Source: a bacterium
GTDB taxonomy: Bacteria; Zhuqueibacterota; Zhuqueibacteria; Residuimicrobiales; Krinioviventaceae
Assembly: GCA_963675755.2 (NCBI GenBank)
Contig: CAXXMD010000003.1
Coordinates: 3,136,001-3,200,000, forward strand
Length of the DNA stretch: 64,000 nucleotides
Direction of reading: 5' to 3'
The notes beneath the pieces were generated by a model. It had not been told where the DNA came from. It ran no database searches and saw only the letters and a program-made list of their open reading frames with translations. The position numbers and the translations under genes were made by a program. This document shows positions 54,059-63,299 of this stretch, piece by piece; within the stretch, counting starts at the first letter, position 1; the number at the start of each line of letters is the position of its first letter.

Positions 54059-56789
54059 ATGATTATGAGAAAAATTTGTTTATTTTTTTTACTGCTAATG
54101 ATGTTTGGAAATGTATTTTCACAAACTCTCTACAGATCAATAACCAGACAACCATCATCAATCGAATGTATTCTAAAGTATTATCCACCAAATGGTGGTT
54201 GGACATCATATGATGGTGCTTCTTATCATATTGGTAATGTAACTTTTCCTAATGTTGATGATCCAGAGGAAGATGATATTTATCTATATAGGTCATACTT
54301 TGTATTTAACGTTAGTTCAATACCAGATAATGCTACAATTACTCAAGTTGAGGTGGTTTATTCAACAGGTGATAATGGTGATTATACCTTCAGACTTACA
54401 AATATTCCTTCCGTTGAAGGGATTCGGTCCGAAGATTGGGGGCCAATTGGTTCTAGTACTATCCTTGAAGATGAGCTGGATTATGGGAGTGATAGTTTTT
54501 ATTCGACAAATTTTAAGAATGCAGTGACTGTTGCTTTAGAGAGTAATAATCTAATCATTGGTGCTTTATCAGAAGATGAATGGACACATGGTTCATTGAC
54601 TACTTTAAGTTTAAGTTTGAATATTGATTATTCTTATCCTGCTGATGCGGTTGATATTATAGTAAAAAATGATCTATACGGTGCAACGGGCGGAAACGTT
54701 GGCGTAGCGATTTATCCGAATTCACTGGTTTCCCATTCCAGTCCCTATTCATTTACCGCTTATGAAGAAGATAGGTTGAATTTGGCAGCTTATGACAACC
54801 AAAGCGTTAGCGGTAAAACCTGGTTTTTTAATGATACGGAATATGGTGTAGAGAATAGTGTGTGGAGAAAATATTCAAACGGAAGTTATTCGACAATAGC
54901 TAATACTGCAAATCTAACAACTAATCAATTAACTACAAGTGATGATGACGCTAATTTTATTGCTTATTTGAAATCATCAACTTATACAACTAGTGGAACA
55001 TTGTCTTATGATGAAATTTGGTTTACTTCTTTTACTTTGGAGGACGATGTTTTTGTGCCTGATGGAAAAACACTCACTATTGCCAGTGGTACAAGCATCA
55101 CTCTTGATGATTGTTTTATAAAGTGTCAGGGGACAGGGCGAATTGTAAATAATGGAACAGTTTCATCAGGTATTTCTGTTAAAGATGGTTCAACAATAAA
55201 AGGTTATTATTATACTGTTGGTGACGCAATGACAAATGCGCTTACCGGGCAATCAGTGTATTTGTCTTTCAGGTAGTTATTCCGGTTGGATCAGCATGAG
55301 AAGTGGAATTGATGTTATAGGATCAGGATCAACAAGTACGTATGTTGGGCAGGTTGCCTTTAATAGTCAAACGAATTGTGAACTCAAAAACCTCAATACT
55401 TCTAATCTGGATATCTCTGGTGGCAACTCTACTACCAAAGTGACCAATGTTCGAACCAACTATCGAATTGAGCTCAATAATAGCAGCGCGTTTTTAAGCA
55501 ATGTAACGTTTTTACAAGGGGATTATTATCCTGGAATAGATGTTAATGATGGCAATCCTGTACTGTATAATATAACTTCAACAACCACCCGATCAAGTTC
55601 CGGAGACCCGGCTGTTTATCTTCATGGAGGAGCAAGTCCCAATATTTATGTTGGTTCAATCCGTAATAAGAATAGAGGTATTCAGATCGGTAGTTCCTGC
55701 TATGCAACAACAGATGCTGATTTTTGTTCAAATACCTGGGACATGTACGCCCTTAGTGGTGCCTGGGATTCTGATATAGATGGTTATTTCAGTGCTCAGG
55801 ACCCTGAGGATTGTTTATATTATCCAAGTGGTGATCTGGAAGATTATTATGAGATAGGAAGTTGGAATTACTGCGGTGCTGGTGTTGCGAAACATGAAAC
55901 TGGTGACAAGATCGAGTCAATGGTTGGTGGTAGTATAACAGATAAAGGATTAAAAGGGGCGTTCAAGGAGTATAACAATATCCGTAAAATTATGATAAAT
56001 GATGCCAAGACCGGAAACATGGACCCCAAATTATATGAGACAGAGTTTGAAGCATTGCTCACAACATTTGCGGATTACGCTCAAACCGGTGATGAGAAAA
56101 ACAGTCCACTTGCCTTAAAGTTATATCAGAATATCTGTTTTGATCTTGAAAAACCGGAACAGTTCTTGTCGTTACTGAATAAGGTAAAAACTGATAACAA
56201 GAGCGAAGCATTGGCCCCGCATCTCGCACATCTAACTATTTCGTATTACAGTTATTTAAATGATGTGAAAAGTGCCTTGATCGAGACAGAAATGTTTGGT
56301 AAGAATTTTCCAAAATCTGATCTGTTGGTAGAAGTTTTGTATAACAAGGGTGTATTGTACCGTTTTGGTTTAGAGGATTGCGACAACGCCGCTAAAGCCT
56401 ATTCGGAAGTGATTGAGCGTTTCCCTGACCACCCTACAGCTGAATCTGCAAGAGCATCACTTGAGCGTTTGGGTGTTTCGAAACCGGAAACGGAAGAGGA
56501 AAGTATTGAACCTATTAAATTAGCATTGGGTAACTTTCCTAATCCATTTAATCCAACCACAGAAATTCATTTTTCATTGCCAGAAACCGGCTTTGTAAGC
56601 ATCAAGGTTTTTGATGTAATGGGGCGTCTGGTTACAACGTTGGTAAGGGCAAATATGAACGCGGGCGCGCACCAGGTGATCTGGAACAGCCGGGACCAGT
56701 ATGGTAATACCGTAGCGTCTGGCATGTATTTTTATCGTATGCAATACCAGGACCAGACCCTAACTCAAAAAATGGTACTTATGAGGTAA
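54059..56789 (+). pseudogene. Large secreted protein (DNRLRE-like, beta-helix, TPR, FlgD-Ig) split by a +1 frameshift near 55267-55269
   Basis: ORF 54059-55276 has the signal peptide but no sorting domain; ORF 55236-56789 has the sorting domain but no signal peptide. Removing one T from TCTTTCAGG gives ...GQSVYLSSGSYSG.... Confidence 0.75.
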
Positions 56790-58597: not shown

Positions 58598-58613
58598 TGG
58601 TACGCTGTTTGCA
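58598..58613 (+). promoter_or_regulatory. Sigma-54 (-24/-12) promoter
   Basis: TGGTACG-CTGT-TTGCA, one mismatch from the consensus TGGCACG-N4-TTGCA, about 100 bp upstream of the start codon. Confidence 0.75.
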
Positions 58614-58714
58614 GTCGTGTTCCAAAAATCGGCAGATGCCGTTTAAAAGTTACAAGACTATGAAAAACAGTGGATTATATATCTGCTGAATTCACTAAAA
58701 ACCTGGAGTTTAAA

Positions 58715-60019
58715 GTGAAACAACACATTGCAGGATTTTTAATTTTACTGATGGGATTATTTGTACTGTTTTCCTGTACAAAGAAATATCCCGACCAAAC
58801 CCAGATGGATTTGGCAATTGGTGGAGATGGGTGTACCAGCTGTCATATGAATACCGATCTGTTAAAGGAGGTAGCTACCCCTCAGGAAGATACCGAGGGT
58901 GATGCGGGCGAAGGCTGAGGCGGGGAAGTGGCTCCGTTGGAGACATGGCAGATGGTTTCAATTAAAGAATCTTTTCTAAGTACCTCACATGGTAAACTGG
59001 GCTGTACAGCTTGTCACTTTGGTAATGCCAAAGCAAAGACAAAAGAAGAAGCCCACGTAGACGACTTTGTTGCAAGTCCCAGTATGCAGCCGGATGTATA
59101 TTGTGAAGGTTGTCATGCTGAAATTACCAATGATCATAATGGTAGTTTGCACAAAAATCTCGATGGATATTACAAACGTATTGAAAAGCGCCTGGGTTAT
59201 GATATTTCAGGTGATGAAATGATTGTTGGCGAATTCAATAAAGAATGCGGCAAGTGTCATGCTAGCTGCGGACAGTGTCACGTTTCCCGACCTGTATCCG
59301 TTAAAGGTGGTTTCCTGGATGGACACACCTTCCAGCGTGAACCGACCATGAAAGACAATTGTACAGCATGTCATGGCAGTCGTGTTGGCGCCGAATTCTT
59401 TGGTGAGAATGAAGGCATGAGAGCAGACGTTCATTGGATCCCCAATGTAAAACGTTGTGTTTTCTGTCACGATGGCAATTCTATGCATAGTTCAACGGAT
59501 GGTGCAACCCACCGCTATGAAGACCAGGATATGACCCGTTGTGAAGACTGCCATATGGATGACAAAGAAGCTAATGAATATCATCTTACGCACTGGAAAG
59601 ATGACGGCGGATTGTCATGCCAGGTTTGTCATTCTCAGGACTATAAGAACTGTAATAGCTGCCATACCGGTGGCGCGGGAATTACCGGCAGTTCGTATAT
59701 GGATTTCAAGATTGCCAAGAACCCGATCAAGACAGATTACCGGAACTATGATGTTGTAACGGTACGTCATATTCCAATTTCTCGTGATACCTATACAAGC
59801 TGGGGTATTACTGACTTGCCGAATTACAATGTTGAACCCACCTGGAAATATGCAACACCGCATAATATTCAGCGTTGGACAGCTCGTACAGATACAACCG
59901 GTAGTACAGCTTGTTATGAAAAGTGTCATAATTCAGATTATTACCTGACGCTTGAAGACTTGTTTGAAGAAGAAGTTGATGCAAACAAGGATTACGTATT
60001 AACACGAAATGATAACTAG
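58715..60019 (+). CDS. Multiheme c-type cytochrome lipoprotein, probable selenoprotein (UGA=Sec at codon 68); 10 CxxCH + 1 CxxxCH
   Basis: ORFs 58670-58918 and 58928-60019 share a frame and are separated only by TGA-GGC-GGG-GAA. GTG at 58715 has a GGAG RBS and lipobox LFSC. A SECIS-like hairpin follows the TGA. Confidence 0.85.
58928..58946 (+). promoter_or_regulatory. Putative bacterial SECIS element
   Basis: GUG-G-CUCC-[GUU]-GGAG-A-CAU hairpin. The apical loop starts with GU, 17 nt after the UGA. Confidence 0.65.
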
Positions 60020-60055
60020 AACAAATAACAAATAATACAAAATGGAGGAAACTCG

Positions 60056-61060
60056 ATGTTAAAGAGAACACTTTTATTGTTACTGGGTTTGTCACTGGTC
60101 TTGTTCCTGTTTGGTTGTAGCGATGATGATGACAGTCCTGCTGAAACCGAAACTGTAGATGAATTTAGTTTAATGACAGATGTTGGTGATGTATATTTTA
60201 CAGATTATACCACAACCGGTGGCAATGCTGTGAATGTTTCTATTTCTGCTGTATTCCCGATTTTGGCTGATGGCGATGCATCAAATGATCCATTGATCCT
60301 TGATTATCGTTCAGCTGCTGACTATGCAACCGGTCACTTGACAGGTGCTATCAATATTTCATTGGGAAGTTTGATGGATAAAATTGAAGATGGTACCATA
60401 ACCAAAGACAAGACCGTTTTGAACGTGTGTTATACCGGTCAAACCGCAAGTTTTGCTACCAGTATTTTGAATCTGTTGGGTTATGAAGCAGAAAACCTAC
60501 TTTATGGTATGTGTGGTGTTACTACAGATGCTTCTGTCAATGGTACTGACAAATGGAGCTCTCAGGTTGCATCTGATGAATTTGCAGCGCAATTGGTTGC
60601 TTCTGTCTCTACTACTACTACTGAATATGATTTTCCGTCAATTTCTACAAGCCAAACAACTGCAGAAGAAGTTATTACAGAACAATTTAAATCTGTAGGT
60701 GCAAGTGGTTGGACTATTTCTGCCGGAGATGTTTTTGCTAATCCTTCCGGTTATTTTGTCATCAATTACTGGCCACAGGCTGAATACGAAGCACCGGGTC
60801 ATATTCCGGGTGCATATTGTTTCCCACCCAAATCTTCTTTGCAGAAAGCAGAAATGTTGAAACTGCTGCCTACTGACAAAACAATCGTTGTATATTGCTA
60901 TACAGGTCAAACCTCTGCTCAGGTTACTGCTTATCTGCGTATGTTGGGTTATGACGCGAAAAGCTTGTTGTATGGTGTAAATGGTTTTGCTTATAATGCA
61001 TTAGCCGGCCATAAATACTCTGCACCAGCAGACGATTACTCAGCAATTATCGTAAAATAA
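60056..61060 (+). CDS. Tandem-rhodanese (sulfurtransferase) lipoprotein
   Basis: Lipobox LFGC; two domains, each with GHxxGA and an active-site loop (CYTGQTA at 60428, CYTGQTS at 60896). Confidence 0.9.
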   Translation: MLKRTLLLLLGLSLVLFLFGCSDDDDSPAETETVDEFSLMTDVGDVYFTDYTTTGGNAVNVSISAVFPILADGDASNDPLILDYRSAADYATGHLTGAINISLGSLMDKIEDGTITKDKTVLNVCYTGQTASFATSILNLLGYEAENLLYGMCGVTTDASVNGTDKWSSQVASDEFAAQLVASVSTTTTEYDFPSISTSQTTAEEVITEQFKSVGASGWTISAGDVFANPSGYFVINYWPQAEYEAPGHIPGAYCFPPKSSLQKAEMLKLLPTDKTIVVYCYTGQTSAQVTAYLRMLGYDAKSLLYGVNGFAYNALAGHKYSAPADDYSAIIVK

Positions 61061-61070
61061 ATCCTGCAAA

Positions 61071-61120
61071 AATCCGAGACTGTGAAATTTTTTACAGTCT
61101 CGGGTTGCTTTTTTGTTTTT
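61071..61120 (+). terminator. Intra-operon hairpin/terminator
   Basis: CCGAGACTGTGA...TTACAGTCTCGG followed by T-runs. Confidence 0.7.
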
Positions 61121-61181
61121 TATATATTATCATTCAGTATAATCAAATATGCGCGGTTCCAAATATATCGCGGGAAAAATT

Positions 61182-62360
61182 ATGAAAAAAATCATTCCAA
61201 TTCTGGTGCTGTTATCAAGTATGTGCCTGCAAGCACAGGGCCTGGTATTTCACGGAAAGGTCAGGAACTCTGTTTACAGTTACGAGAGTGATGAACAGCA
61301 TAATCGGGCTTATCAGTATTTGCGTTTCAGCCTTGCAACTGCTGATAAAAAGTTCCGTATCAATTCATCTGTACGTGCGCTTACAGATTTTAACGAAACC
61401 ATAGACAGCGATCTTCGTTTCAAAGCTTATGCGTTGAATCTTGAAGCCAACGATCTTTTAGGCCGGGTAGATTTAAAGCTGGGACGCCAGTTCTTACATC
61501 CTGGAACTGTTTTAGGCGCTCTCGATGGTCTGTCTGGCTCTGTCAAGATCAATAAAATGTTTTCTGTAGAGGGTTATGCCGGAACAGAATCACATTTTGA
61601 TCGTATTTTCAAGGTCTACGAGCTGGATGACAGTTTTGTTGCCGGTGGTTTGTTTAATGTTAAAAATCTGTATTCAACCAATCTGCAGCTTTTATATTTG
61701 CATAAATCCAATGTTGATACAACCTTGTTTCAACTCGCTGGTTTAAATGTCACCAATTATACTTTGGATAAAACGCATTTTAATGTTCAGGCGCATTATG
61801 ATATGCAAAATGAACGTATGCATCGCTTGATTGCTTCTGTTCGTCAGGAGTTGTTGGGCAATATGGCGGTTAACCTCAGGTATAAAAGCCAATATCCCCA
61901 GGTTTACACAAACTCGTTTTTTTCTATTTTTTCCCCCAAGGCTTATAAACAATATCATGCAGGGCTGAGTTACGAATTTTATAAAGATTATTATATCAGT
62001 ACGCAATACCAGCTGGTCCAGTTTGATGATGGTAACGCAAACAAGGTGTTTTTTACTGTAAATGGAATGAATGCCAGTGCCGGAGTTTTATATGAAAGCG
62101 GTTACGCAGGCGATCAATTATCTCTTATGTTTGATTATGCATATGAAGTGATTGAAAATCTCTATGCGTCAATTAATCTTGATTATTCGAAATACAGAAC
62201 AGAAGAATTGTATGAATATGATAATCAATTGGCAAACGCGTTGCGCTTGAATTATCGACTCAACAAGAACTGGATCATTGATTTGGAATATCAATGGTTG
62301 AATAACAAATTTACAGAAAATGATTCCCGTTTTCTGAATCATATTACGTATAGATGGTAA
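61182..62360 (+). CDS. Outer-membrane beta-barrel (porin-like) protein
   Basis: Signal peptide from ATG at 61182; alternating amphipathic strands; KLGRQ..DGL motif; C-terminal beta-signal HITYRW. Confidence 0.8.
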   Translation: MKKIIPILVLLSSMCLQAQGLVFHGKVRNSVYSYESDEQHNRAYQYLRFSLATADKKFRINSSVRALTDFNETIDSDLRFKAYALNLEANDLLGRVDLKLGRQFLHPGTVLGALDGLSGSVKINKMFSVEGYAGTESHFDRIFKVYELDDSFVAGGLFNVKNLYSTNLQLLYLHKSNVDTTLFQLAGLNVTNYTLDKTHFNVQAHYDMQNERMHRLIASVRQELLGNMAVNLRYKSQYPQVYTNSFFSIFSPKAYKQYHAGLSYEFYKDYYISTQYQLVQFDDGNANKVFFTVNGMNASAGVLYESGYAGDQLSLMFDYAYEVIENLYASINLDYSKYRTEELYEYDNQLANALRLNYRLNKNWIIDLEYQWLNNKFTENDSRFLNHITYRW

Positions 62361-62375
62361 TTGAAGGATTTTCCA

Positions 62376-63242
62376 ATGAAATATAAAATTGGTATTTTAG
62401 CATTATTCCTGTTGGTTTCTGTTTCTTTGGGACAGAATGTAGAACTGATCTTTTCACATCAGTTCCATGCTGTAGATGTTGAGGCCGAATGTTCTGCTTG
62501 TCACGTTGCGGCTGACACCAGTACAATGGCAATGCATAATCTGCTTCCTGATATGGAGACCTGTTATACCTGTCATGATGAAGATACGGATTGTACCGTA
62601 TGTCACAAAGACCCTGACAATGCTGTCCCGTATCCGCGTATTGAGCAATATATTGCCAAGTTTCCACACGCAACACATGTGGAAAATGAGGTTGCATGCG
62701 AAACATGCCATGCCGGTGTAGCAGCAAGCAGCAATATTCTTGACAGTCATTTGCCTGATATGGGTGCATGTATGAATTGTCATACTGAACTTGAACAGCC
62801 GGACTATTGTATTACCTGCCATGCAGAATCTGAAGATTTGATGCCAGCTGACCATAAACTGGACTGGACAAAATCGCATGGATTTGCAGCACAGGCTGAT
62901 CAGGAATGTTCAATTTGTCATACAGAAGACCAGTGTCTTGATTGTCACCAGGGTGACAACCTTGATCACAAAGTGCACCCGTTGAATTTTGTCAACAATC
63001 ATGCTATCTTTGCCAAGGGCAACAAGGACAACTGTTTGACCTGTCATGAAGAACTGCTGTCATGTGTCGATTGTCATCAACAGGAACTGGTAATGCCCGC
63101 AAACCATTCCAGTGCAGGATGGTCCAACTTTACAACCGGTGGCCGCCATGCACGTGAAGCCCTTCAGGATCTCGATTCCTGTGTTAGTTGTCATAATGAC
63201 GCTGTAGGTGATCCGGTTTGTTTGACCTGTCATCAACAATAA
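62376..63242 (+). CDS. Periplasmic 12-heme cytochrome c (c3/c7-like repeats)
   Basis: Signal peptide from ATG at 62376; 12 CxxCH motifs; FSHQFH and FPHATH distal His pairs. Confidence 0.92.
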   Translation: MKYKIGILALFLLVSVSLGQNVELIFSHQFHAVDVEAECSACHVAADTSTMAMHNLLPDMETCYTCHDEDTDCTVCHKDPDNAVPYPRIEQYIAKFPHATHVENEVACETCHAGVAASSNILDSHLPDMGACMNCHTELEQPDYCITCHAESEDLMPADHKLDWTKSHGFAAQADQECSICHTEDQCLDCHQGDNLDHKVHPLNFVNNHAIFAKGNKDNCLTCHEELLSCVDCHQQELVMPANHSSAGWSNFTTGGRHAREALQDLDSCVSCHNDAVGDPVCLTCHQQ

Positions 63243-63264
63243 TATTTGATTTAAATAGATTATT

Positions 63265-63299
63265 AAAGGTGCTGTAATTTTTTTACAGCACCTTTTTTT
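63265..63299. terminator. Intrinsic terminator closing the cytochrome operon
   Basis: AAAGGTGCTGTAA...TTACAGCACCTTT followed by a T-run, between convergent genes. Confidence 0.85.

Follow-up and report, generated by a model that had tools for sequence, protein, structure and literature searches.

A very probable selenocysteine-containing multiheme cytochrome paired with a tandem rhodanese beside a predicted porin–cytochrome wire

Layout of the locus

We analyzed a 64,000-nucleotide (nt) stretch of a genome assigned to the phylum Zhuqueibacterota (GenBank assembly GCA_963675755.2, contig CAXXMD010000003.1, positions 3,136,001 to 3,200,000 of the forward strand; hereafter the window). At window positions 58598–63299 lies a row of four co-oriented plus-strand genes: cytA, for a multiheme lipoprotein cytochrome with a very probable selenocysteine (Sec) residue; a gene for a two-domain rhodanese lipoprotein; a gene for an outer-membrane beta-barrel; and cytB, for a 12-heme cytochrome. 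A preliminary description of this DNA had named these four genes, including a barrel that ends in Trp, and all are present. Its total of 23 heme motifs was reached again on recounting (11 in cytA and 12 in cytB). The 11 motifs of cytA are there as described, but ten of them are CxxCH and one is CxxxCH. The features of the row are as follows.

58598–58613, plus strand: sigma-54-type promoter motif TGGTACG-N4-TTGCA, ∼100 nt 5' of the cytA start
58715–60019, plus strand: cytA, very probably a selenocysteine-containing 11-heme lipoprotein cytochrome, 434 amino acids (aa), start codon GTG, stop codon included
58916–58918, plus strand: in-frame TGA, very probable selenocysteine codon, residue 68 counted from 58715, motif G-E-G-U-G-G
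58929–58945, plus strand: candidate selenocysteine insertion sequence (SECIS) hairpin, stem of 6–7 base pairs beginning 11 nt after the UGA, apical loop G-U-U
60056–61060, plus strand: tandem two-domain rhodanese lipoprotein, 334 aa, Pfam PF00581 at 4.2e-25 in two stretches
61071–61106, plus strand: terminator-like hairpin between the rhodanese and barrel genes, 16 pairs then GCTTTTTTGT, a T-run
61182–62360, plus strand: outer-membrane beta-barrel, 392 aa from the ATG at 61182, 22 strands and no plug in an AlphaFold2 model
62376–63242, plus strand: cytB, exported 12-heme cytochrome of c7-type units with 12 CxxCH motifs, type-I signal peptide by reading
63265–63295, plus strand: intrinsic-terminator-like hairpin closing the gene row, 13 pairs plus a T-run

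The longest open reading frames (ORFs) begin further upstream for cytA (GTG at 58670), the barrel gene (61149) and cytB (62361); for cytA, the GTG at 58715 is the likely start. Signal peptides and lipoboxes were throughout read from the sequence by eye.

The TGA in cytA

The reading frame of cytA is continuous to 60019 only if the TGA at 58916–58918 is read through. The genome, which is 98% complete, encodes the machinery for Sec: SelB (371 bits), SelA (580 bits), SelD (377 bits) and tRNA-SeC. The SelD gene (G000:C3:1425405-1426334) has one in-frame TGA of its own, so SelD is probably a selenoprotein too.

Homologues of cytA are numerous, with 2724 in the database and 352 related loci in species-representative genomes. 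A survey of 151 genomes of the phylum, read through stop codons, found cytA in 40 genomes. We compared two sets of loci. The first consists of 40 cytA loci that were fetched. The second consists of the 80 best of the 352 related loci, from species genomes under many phylum labels. Among 43 cytA matches across the phylum, 35 contain one in-frame TGA. In the 40-locus set, a TGA occupies the same column in 33 loci, Cys in one (L024) and another residue or a gap in five, with one locus undetermined at this column. In the 80-locus set, a TGA is found in 76, always within G-E-G-U-G-G; two loci have Cys (L070, L071), one has Arg and one lacks the N-terminus. The 120 best database homologues fit this picture. 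Nearly all of them (117) cover at most 81% of cytA, because their genes have been called from just after the TGA. The other three cover 92–96%, and these have Cys at the Sec site (one) or neither Cys nor Sec (two).

Downstream of the TGA, comparison of 22 loci points to a candidate SECIS hairpin. In these loci 86.4% of stem cells are paired, a level reached by 0 of 500 shuffles, and three pairs have changed on both sides. Sliding the register lowers pairing to 34–60%. The loop is ∼17 nt from the UGA, in keeping with the rule given for bacterial SECIS elements, whose apical loop lies 16–37 nt from the UGA (PMC13188914). Support for this element is only moderate, since the stem is conserved coding sequence and the window's own copy has a G-A mismatch at one pair. 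The single-sequence minimum-free-energy fold 3' of the TGA is not better than those of shuffles (z = 0.36). An alternative helix that includes the UGA showed no compensatory changes and was set aside, and an Rfam scan of the region gave two chance-level matches only.

The conserved column, the Cys forms, the presence of SelA, SelB, SelD and tRNA-Sec, and the downstream hairpin all point the same way. As the preliminary description had it, the TGA of cytA is very probably a Sec codon. In a tree of 79 sequences, which comes from a quick maximum-likelihood search (a careful search being unfinished), the losses of Sec without a gain of Cys belong to two distinct clades, whereas the Cys forms constitute a single clade inside the window's group.

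Hemes of cytA

From the GTG at 58715, cytA begins M-K-Q-H-I-A-G-F-L-I-L-L-M-G-L-F-V-L-F-S-C, a signal peptide that ends in L-F-S-C. The protein matches Pfam Cytochrome_C7 (1.1e-07). No NCBIfam family scored above its own cut-off on cytA, and no TsdA or SoxA family match was found in Pfam or NCBIfam. Some homologues bear the MtrC/MtrF domain family in precomputed Pfam assignments. Searches of the PDB by sequence and profile gave a best E of 0.016, on heme-motif stretches, and a Foldseek search of the PDB with an AlphaFold2 model of cytA gave nothing at E <1.

Across 72 full-length Sec forms, cytA has the 11 His of the heme motifs and exactly ten other invariant His, at positions 92, 114, 146, 204, 240, 258, 290, 293, 352 and 383. 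In the same sequences there is no conserved Met, and no Cys at all beyond the heme motifs and the lipobox. With 11 hemes, ten extra His and no conserved Met, one heme of cytA should have neither His nor Met as its sixth ligand. The Sec at position 68 (Sec68) follows the first heme motif, in a loop rich in Gly, and is a candidate ligand or neighbour of this odd heme.

The rhodanese and its pairing with cytA

Both domains of the rhodanese have an active-site Cys (C125 and C281), with the loop C-Y-T-G-Q-T in the window. In 32 of 32 two-domain orthologues both Cys are invariant, and the loop reads C-Y-T-G-[QH]-T. The signal peptide ends in L-F-G-C, and the lipobox is followed by an acidic run, C-S-D-D-D-D, also seen in orthologues. 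An acidic run after the lipid-bearing Cys marks surface export in Bacteroidota, a rule that may not hold in the phylum of the window.

The rhodanese gene adjoins cytA in 32 of the 33 Sec-bearing loci of the 40-locus set, and the exception has room for only 771 nt. In the 80-locus set it adjoins cytA in 77, lying 8–430 nt downstream or 150–270 nt upstream. Of the five loci in the 40-locus set that have neither Sec nor Cys, four also lack the rhodanese. Relatives are not independent, so these joint losses of Sec and rhodanese count as two events, not five. cytA and the rhodanese are thus a near-fixed pair across many phylum labels.

Two loci deserve separate mention. In the Cys-form locus L024 (genome G092), a 78-aa rhodanese remnant (L024:6776-7009) lies between cytA and the barrel gene; its sister Cys-form locus, L070, keeps a full rhodanese. 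A 1058-aa protein with cytochrome and rhodanese parts (P0247) was considered as a true fusion and rejected, because an internal lipoprotein signal peptide suggests a merged gene call.

The barrel and cytB

The AlphaFold2 model of the barrel, built with 37 sequences, has 22 strands, short loops and a mean predicted local distance difference test (pLDDT) score of 86.6. The C-terminus reads ...HITYRW. An all-against-representatives structural search ranked 22-strand TonB-dependent transporter barrels highest, matched in the barrel part only (Z 19.9, root-mean-square deviation (rmsd) 4.6, 334 residues aligned). MtrB of the solved Mtr complex (6r2q_B) was also matched (Z 16.0, rmsd 5.1, 338 aligned). 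Foldseek returned generic barrels only, and the ESM Atlas only unnamed look-alike clusters. No Pfam family scored above its cut-off; the sole match was BBP2_2 at E 0.013, and MtrB/PioB (PF11854) was not matched. Among 120 barrel homologues listed, most are unnamed and 'hypothetical protein' is the only name given. As there is no plug domain, a lumen of this size should be occupied.

cytB follows directly. It matches Pfam Cytochrome_C7 (1.5e-13) and, in the PDB, c7-like 8k9e (1.4e-11), ActA of alternative complex III (ACIII; 6f0k, 4.6e-11) and a Geobacter dodecaheme cytochrome (3ov0, 1.4e-06). It has the features of a c7 polymer of the GSU1996 kind, namely repeated c7 units and ∼12 bis-His hemes, with the His ligands counted in one alignment.

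The preliminary description had proposed the porin and the dodecaheme cytochrome as a wire and suggested modelling the two together. A complex model of the barrel (residues 30–403) and cytB (residues 20–288) placed cytB inside the barrel, with a score of 0.66 versus 0.00 for the best of three controls. The score mark used is attained by 58 of 80 solved complexes and by 2 of 110 mismatched pairs. The runs shared at least 88% of contacts, and the partner had a pLDDT of at least 75. Modelled contacts join alternate, inward-facing residues of most barrel strands to cytB residues 137–286. The model thus supports a cytB that sits in the barrel lumen as a porin–cytochrome wire, in line with the earlier proposal.

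Two separable modules

The gene neighbourhood had been put forward as a test of the four-gene unit. The genes do co-occur elsewhere, and in this sense the row is conserved; the four-gene unit is not obligate, and its two halves are also found apart. In the clade of the window, the eight loci closest in sequence identity that have downstream room (L021–L024 and L028–L031 of the 40-locus set) all have the four genes. Across the whole 40-locus set, the barrel gene and cytB both lie beside cytA in 23 loci, and a barrel match lies beside cytA in ∼37 of the 80 best loci. Four Sec-less forms of cytA still have barrel–cytB (L036, L037, L064, L065).

We also fetched ten barrel loci that are unlinked to cytA. 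In all ten, a cytB orthologue (11–12 hemes, 47–54% identical) directly follows the barrel gene. A third multiheme ORF comes after cytB in nine of the ten, and eight of those nine start with a lipoprotein signal. A lipoprotein cytochrome after barrel–cytB in these loci is the layout of a porin–cytochrome core with an exchangeable outer partner. In the window, cytA and the rhodanese take the place of that partner. A porin–cytochrome core with a swappable lipoprotein partner has also been described for conduits of Geobacter (PMC6148476).

The converse exchange is seen in two loci labelled Thermodesulfobacteriota. In these, an MtrB/PioB barrel (PF11854) is encoded just upstream of cytA–rhodanese (L108:3224-5071, L113:2942-4780), with large MtrC-like cytochromes nearby. 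The cytA–rhodanese pair has thus been joined to two unrelated barrel families. These data show that the row consists of two separable modules, cytA–rhodanese and barrel–cytB.

Two further observations concern the lipoproteins of relatives (L147–L156, L024–L027, L036–L037). Lipoprotein multiheme cytochromes encoded after barrel–cytB carry a common N-terminal motif, C-S-x-D-x-N-P-[LI]-P-S-K-[SA]-H-P, that starts at the lipid Cys. In one clade, cytA itself starts C-S-K-R-E-P-L-P-S-K-P. Such a segment could dock on the barrel or thread it.

Transcription signals and genome context

A sigma-54 motif and a terminator had been reported as the bounds of a single operon. Both signals were found where the row begins and ends. 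The single operon is less secure: a second terminator-like hairpin, overlooked earlier, lies at 61071–61106 inside the row, and with 16 pairs it is stronger than the closing one, which has 13. This internal hairpin suggests that the four genes may form two transcription units, and it agrees with the separability of cytA–rhodanese and barrel–cytB seen in the comparison of loci. The hairpin could also act as an attenuator and so tune how much enzyme is made relative to conduit.

The sigma-54 motif occurs once in the 64-kb window, against 0.04 matches expected, and 4 of 100 shuffles have at least one match. The genome encodes RpoN (440.8 bits). Relaxing the motif gives 13 matches in 882 kb of relatives, of which 8 lie on the plus strand within 1.3 kb 5' of cytA. 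The strict pattern was found within 450 nt upstream of cytA in 0 of 74 loci, so that the enrichment comes from the looser pattern and the wider span only. PAS-domain sigma-54 activators are encoded beside the cluster in L072, L128 and L130; none is near the cluster in the window. These data make sigma-54 control of the cluster plausible. Many relatives labelled KSB1 have, preceding cytA, a gene for a small TPR protein (∼150–180 aa, starting M-S-E-M-L-G-N-Q-Y-F) and one for a PAS/sigma-54 activator (examples at L072:3993-5956 and L127:5402-5947); both are absent beside the window's cluster.

Genes flanking the row are unrelated to it. They encode a protein with a type IX secretion (T9SS) tail and, on the other strand, a class II aldolase and an SRAP peptidase. 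At its C-terminus, the product of the upstream gene (55236–56789) carries a sorting domain for type IX secretion (Por_Secre_tail, 3.7e-07), which indicates that the organism has surface export of the Fibrobacterota–Chlorobiota–Bacteroidota (FCB) type. The genome has 21 stop-to-stop ORFs with at least four CxxCH motifs. Among the heme-rich ORFs are one with 37 CxxCH, a row with 20, 25 and 10, and one with 19 (G000:C1:387393-390047; C2:1674449-1678883; C3:1627828-1630638). In this genome DsrA was not found, and no SoxB scored above cut-off.

Comparison with known systems

The row most resembles the ExtHIJKL cluster of Geobacter sulfurreducens, in which a rhodanese lipoprotein, an outer-membrane barrel and a Sec multiheme cytochrome are co-encoded and a 12-heme cytochrome is near. 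To our knowledge, the enzyme of elemental-sulfur (S0) respiration in Geobacter-type bacteria was not known until 2026. In August 2026, ExtKL (GSU2940-2936 cluster), renamed MccSep, was shown to be a periplasmic five-heme selenoprotein (PMC13510729). According to the same paper, MccSep is molybdenum-free, reduces polysulfide and, less well, selenite in a Sec-dependent manner, and is essential for S0 respiration in Geobacter; in its active site a heme is ligated by Cys239, with Sec325 alongside (PMC13510729). The extKL gene lies with those of the rhodanese lipoprotein ExtH, the barrel ExtI and the 12-heme ExtM (PMC5877670, PMC6148476). Besides gene content, the two cytochromes share a feature of their hemes: MccSep has Sec beside a heme with a non-His distal ligand, and one of the cytA hemes is left with no conserved partner His.

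Yet the parts do not appear to be related, as judged by models of ExtKL, ExtJ and ExtM. With the ExtKL model NF040886 (cyt_C_like_Sec), the cytA locus is unmatched even at a limit of E = 10, and the best match in the genome, elsewhere, scores 35 bits against a cut-off of 250. The ExtJ model (NF040942) has no match above cut-off in the genome. On cytA the ExtM model (NF040943) reaches 14.7 bits, far below its cut-off of 800; on cytB it has no match at E ≤0.1. Four further models, NF040940, NF040941, NF040944 and NF040885, were tried for ExtH and ExtI and discarded as unrelated families. cytA differs from MccSep in other ways too. It has 11 hemes, not five; its Sec is residue 68 of 434, in G-E-G-U-G-G, whereas that of MccSep lies in a C-terminal Ig-like domain (D-G-U-P); it has no counterpart of the heme-ligating C239, and no free Cys at all; and it is a lipoprotein, whereas MccSep is a soluble periplasmic tetramer. 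The MccSep family is reported mainly from Desulfobacterota and Nitrospirota (PMC13510729), whereas genomes with cytA are labelled KSB1, Calditrichota, Eisenbacteria, Gemmatimonadota and others. The comparison with extHIJKL made in the preliminary description is therefore apt in gene content, though not as homology to ExtKL, ExtJ or ExtM. It has also gained strength from the demonstration that MccSep reduces polysulfide and selenite in a Sec-dependent manner and without molybdenum.

A 2026 review of prokaryotic selenoproteins lists three families of Sec cytochromes, those of ExtKL, GSU2204 and OTR (PMC13188914). None of the models for these three families matches cytA at E ≤0.1. Our literature search, whose scope did not extend to the supplementary homologue lists of PMC13510729 (data S1 and S2), led to MccSep/ExtKL but to no account of a Sec cytochrome with 11 hemes and a rhodanese partner.

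Shewanella MtrCAB and Geobacter OmaB-OmbB-OmcB are alike in that a multiheme cytochrome sits in a plug-less barrel (here by model) and has a lipoprotein multiheme partner, all from adjacent genes. The barrel of the window differs from theirs in having 22 strands in 392 aa and no match to a Pfam porin family, MtrB_PioB included. In place of an MtrA-type decaheme stands cytB, a dodecaheme of the c7 type, and, unlike in Mtr and the porin–cytochrome complex (Pcc) systems, the outer partner has Sec and an accompanying rhodanese. By sequence, cytB matches Geobacter GSU1996 (3ov0) and ACIII ActA (6f0k, 6btm), at 1.4e-06 to 4.6e-11, and GSU1996 also has 12 hemes in c7 units. GSU1996 is a soluble periplasmic cytochrome; unlike it, cytB invariably has a barrel gene immediately upstream of its own.

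In polysulfide respiration of Wolinella succinogenes, the periplasmic rhodanese-like carrier Sud hands sulfur to the molybdenum enzyme PsrABC. The row in the window likewise has a rhodanese-type sulfur carrier beside a presumed reductase. Here the carrier is lipid-anchored with two active domains, the locus has no molybdopterin subunit, and the presumed reductase is a Sec multiheme cytochrome. TsdA and SoxAX offer a parallel for the active site, with chalcogen chemistry at a heme that has a non-His sixth ligand; cytA has one candidate heme of this kind. Neither matches cytA in sequence, and the candidate residue in cytA is Sec, not Cys. Judged by sequence, the row thus appears to be analogous to ExtHIJKL/MccSep and to the Mtr and Pcc conduits, and to be built from unrelated parts.

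Proposed function and alternatives

We propose, with middling confidence, that the row couples a Sec-dependent, molybdenum-free module for the reduction of sulfur (or selenium) to a porin–cytochrome wire. The catalytic pair would be the Sec-containing 11-heme lipoprotein cytA and the lipoprotein with two catalytically competent rhodanese domains. The wire would be the 22-strand barrel with the 12-heme cytB threaded in its lumen. Under this proposal, the quinol pool and periplasmic cytochromes would feed cytB, and electrons would traverse the outer membrane within the barrel to reach cytA, the lipoprotein partner of cytB. The rhodanese would bind sulfane sulfur (from polysulfide or S0) or selenium (from selenite) on its Cys, in persulfide form, and offer it to cytA. 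There, the selenolate of Sec68 might attack the persulfide beside the single heme that lacks a His distal ligand, and the heme chain would reduce the Se–S adduct and yield sulfide. Expression would be driven via sigma-54. Four elements of this scheme are inferences: what the substrate is, that flow is reductive, that cytA and its rhodanese partner sit at the surface, and that Sec acts at the heme.

In a bolder version, which we consider doubtful, Sec68 itself would be the sixth ligand of the first heme of cytA, making a His/selenocysteinate c-type heme on the outer face of the cell, where the barrel-sheathed 12-heme wire ends; solid S0 or polysulfide, delivered by the two-domain rhodanese, would be reduced directly there. 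We know of no previous description of this cofactor state. The odd ligand could come instead from Tyr310, Lys311 or Lys378 of cytA, which are also invariant. AlphaFold2 modelled cytA poorly (mean pLDDT 62, and <50 over residues 24–124 around Sec). Both points weigh against a role for Sec68 at the heme, in the proposed reductase as well as in this version of it. Other points weigh against the coupling to the wire or the surface site. The solved MtrAB complex may have informed the complex model of barrel and cytB. After its lipid Cys, cytA has non-acidic residues (T-K-K-Y-P), unlike the rhodanese. About half of the 80 best loci have cytA–rhodanese without this barrel, and the barrel family is found in 78 of the 151 phylum genomes versus 40 for cytA, so that adjacency in the window could be loose. 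The strong hairpin at 61071–61106 parts the two modules. MccSep, the closest precedent, is periplasmic. Finally, in P0245 a cytA-like module with further hemes is fused to a C-terminal cytochrome b561 membrane domain, and in a Candidatus Electryonea locus a CbcL-like multiheme/cytochrome-b fusion directly follows cytA–rhodanese (L130:8759-11341). This fusion and this neighbour suggest that the chemistry of cytA is probably periplasmic in some lineages. Both fusions look like CbcL-type quinol oxidases that feed the Sec cytochrome.

Several of these points favour the main rival, to which we assign an appreciable minority chance. In this alternative, cytA–rhodanese is a membrane-anchored polysulfide reductase that works in the periplasm, as MccSep does (PMC13510729), and is fed by periplasmic or inner-membrane cytochromes. 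Barrel–cytB would then be a general conduit for extracellular electron transfer that is merely adjacent, or that passes sulfur species or electrons separately. The internal hairpin, the loci with the pair and without the barrel, the P0245 fusion and the CbcL-like neighbour in L130 are all as this alternative predicts, as is the occurrence of barrel–cytB with other lipoprotein cytochromes and in genomes without cytA. Yet the clade of the window keeps all four genes, even Sec-less forms of cytA stay with barrel–cytB, and cytA fills the slot that lipoprotein cytochromes hold in other barrel–cytB loci. Moreover, in L108 and L113 it is an unrelated MtrB/PioB barrel that adjoins cytA. We keep the coupled reductase as the preferred interpretation.

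The remaining alternatives change the chemistry. Flow could be oxidative, an improbable case in which the Sec–heme site oxidises sulfide, polysulfide or thiosulfate, in the manner of TsdA or of MccSep in reverse, and electrons either leave the cell along the cytB–barrel wire to outside acceptors (Fe(III) or Mn(IV) oxides, for example) or enter the respiratory chain. Sequence does not set the direction of flow, and this genome is rich in multiheme cytochromes. TsdA and SoxAX, with their His/Cys hemes, run oxidatively, and the mechanism of MccSep is described as related to their reverse (PMC13510729); sulfide oxidation coupled to iron-oxide reduction via porin–cytochrome complexes has also been described (PMC12545173). 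Against this stand the lack of Dsr and of SoxB above cut-off for further oxidation, and the lack of TsdA or SoxA family matches on cytA in Pfam and NCBIfam. In addition, the sole characterised Sec multiheme enzyme with rhodanese and porin neighbours is reductive. Selenium or tellurium might instead be the substrate, with selenite or tellurite reduced at the envelope for detoxification or selenium supply and the rhodanese carrying perselenide. Geobacter that has lost ExtI is impaired in reducing selenite and tellurite (PMC5877670), rhodanese is reported to be able to carry selenium (reference cited in PMC5877670), MccSep also acts on selenite in vitro, though polysulfide is the better substrate (PMC13510729), and the organism requires selenium. 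We still judge this alternative quite improbable: polysulfide is preferred by MccSep, whose phenotype is S0 respiration; the broad sediment and subsurface spread of the pair suits abundant sulfur over trace selenium; and the locus has nothing specific to selenium beyond Sec. Least probable of all, in our view, and only barely credible, is a generic porin–cytochrome complex for metal reduction, in which Sec merely tunes a heme and the rhodanese is accessory. The barrel–cytB core is indeed common to loci with ordinary lipoprotein cytochromes, and the MtrC/MtrF domain family occurs, by precomputed Pfam, in some cytA homologues. But Sec and the two-Cys rhodanese stand together in 77 of the 80 best loci and have mostly been lost together, and this joint retention and loss is hard to explain without sulfur or selenium chemistry.

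Significance

cytA defines a second family of Sec multiheme cytochromes, with no detectable sequence relation to MccSep, and its members have mostly been truncated at the TGA by gene callers. If the row encodes a sulfur or selenium reductase as we propose, Sec-plus-heme chemistry would have arisen twice, and the idea of sulfur chemistry where an electron conduit reaches the outside could be put to the test in this row. Sulfur respiration that depends on selenium and needs no molybdenum would then be far commoner in sediments than surveys based on Psr suggest. Should Sec68 also prove to be a heme ligand at the cell surface, cytA would be a second, independently evolved Sec–heme sulfur reductase and would mark a major unrecognised route of S0 respiration across uncultured sediment phyla.

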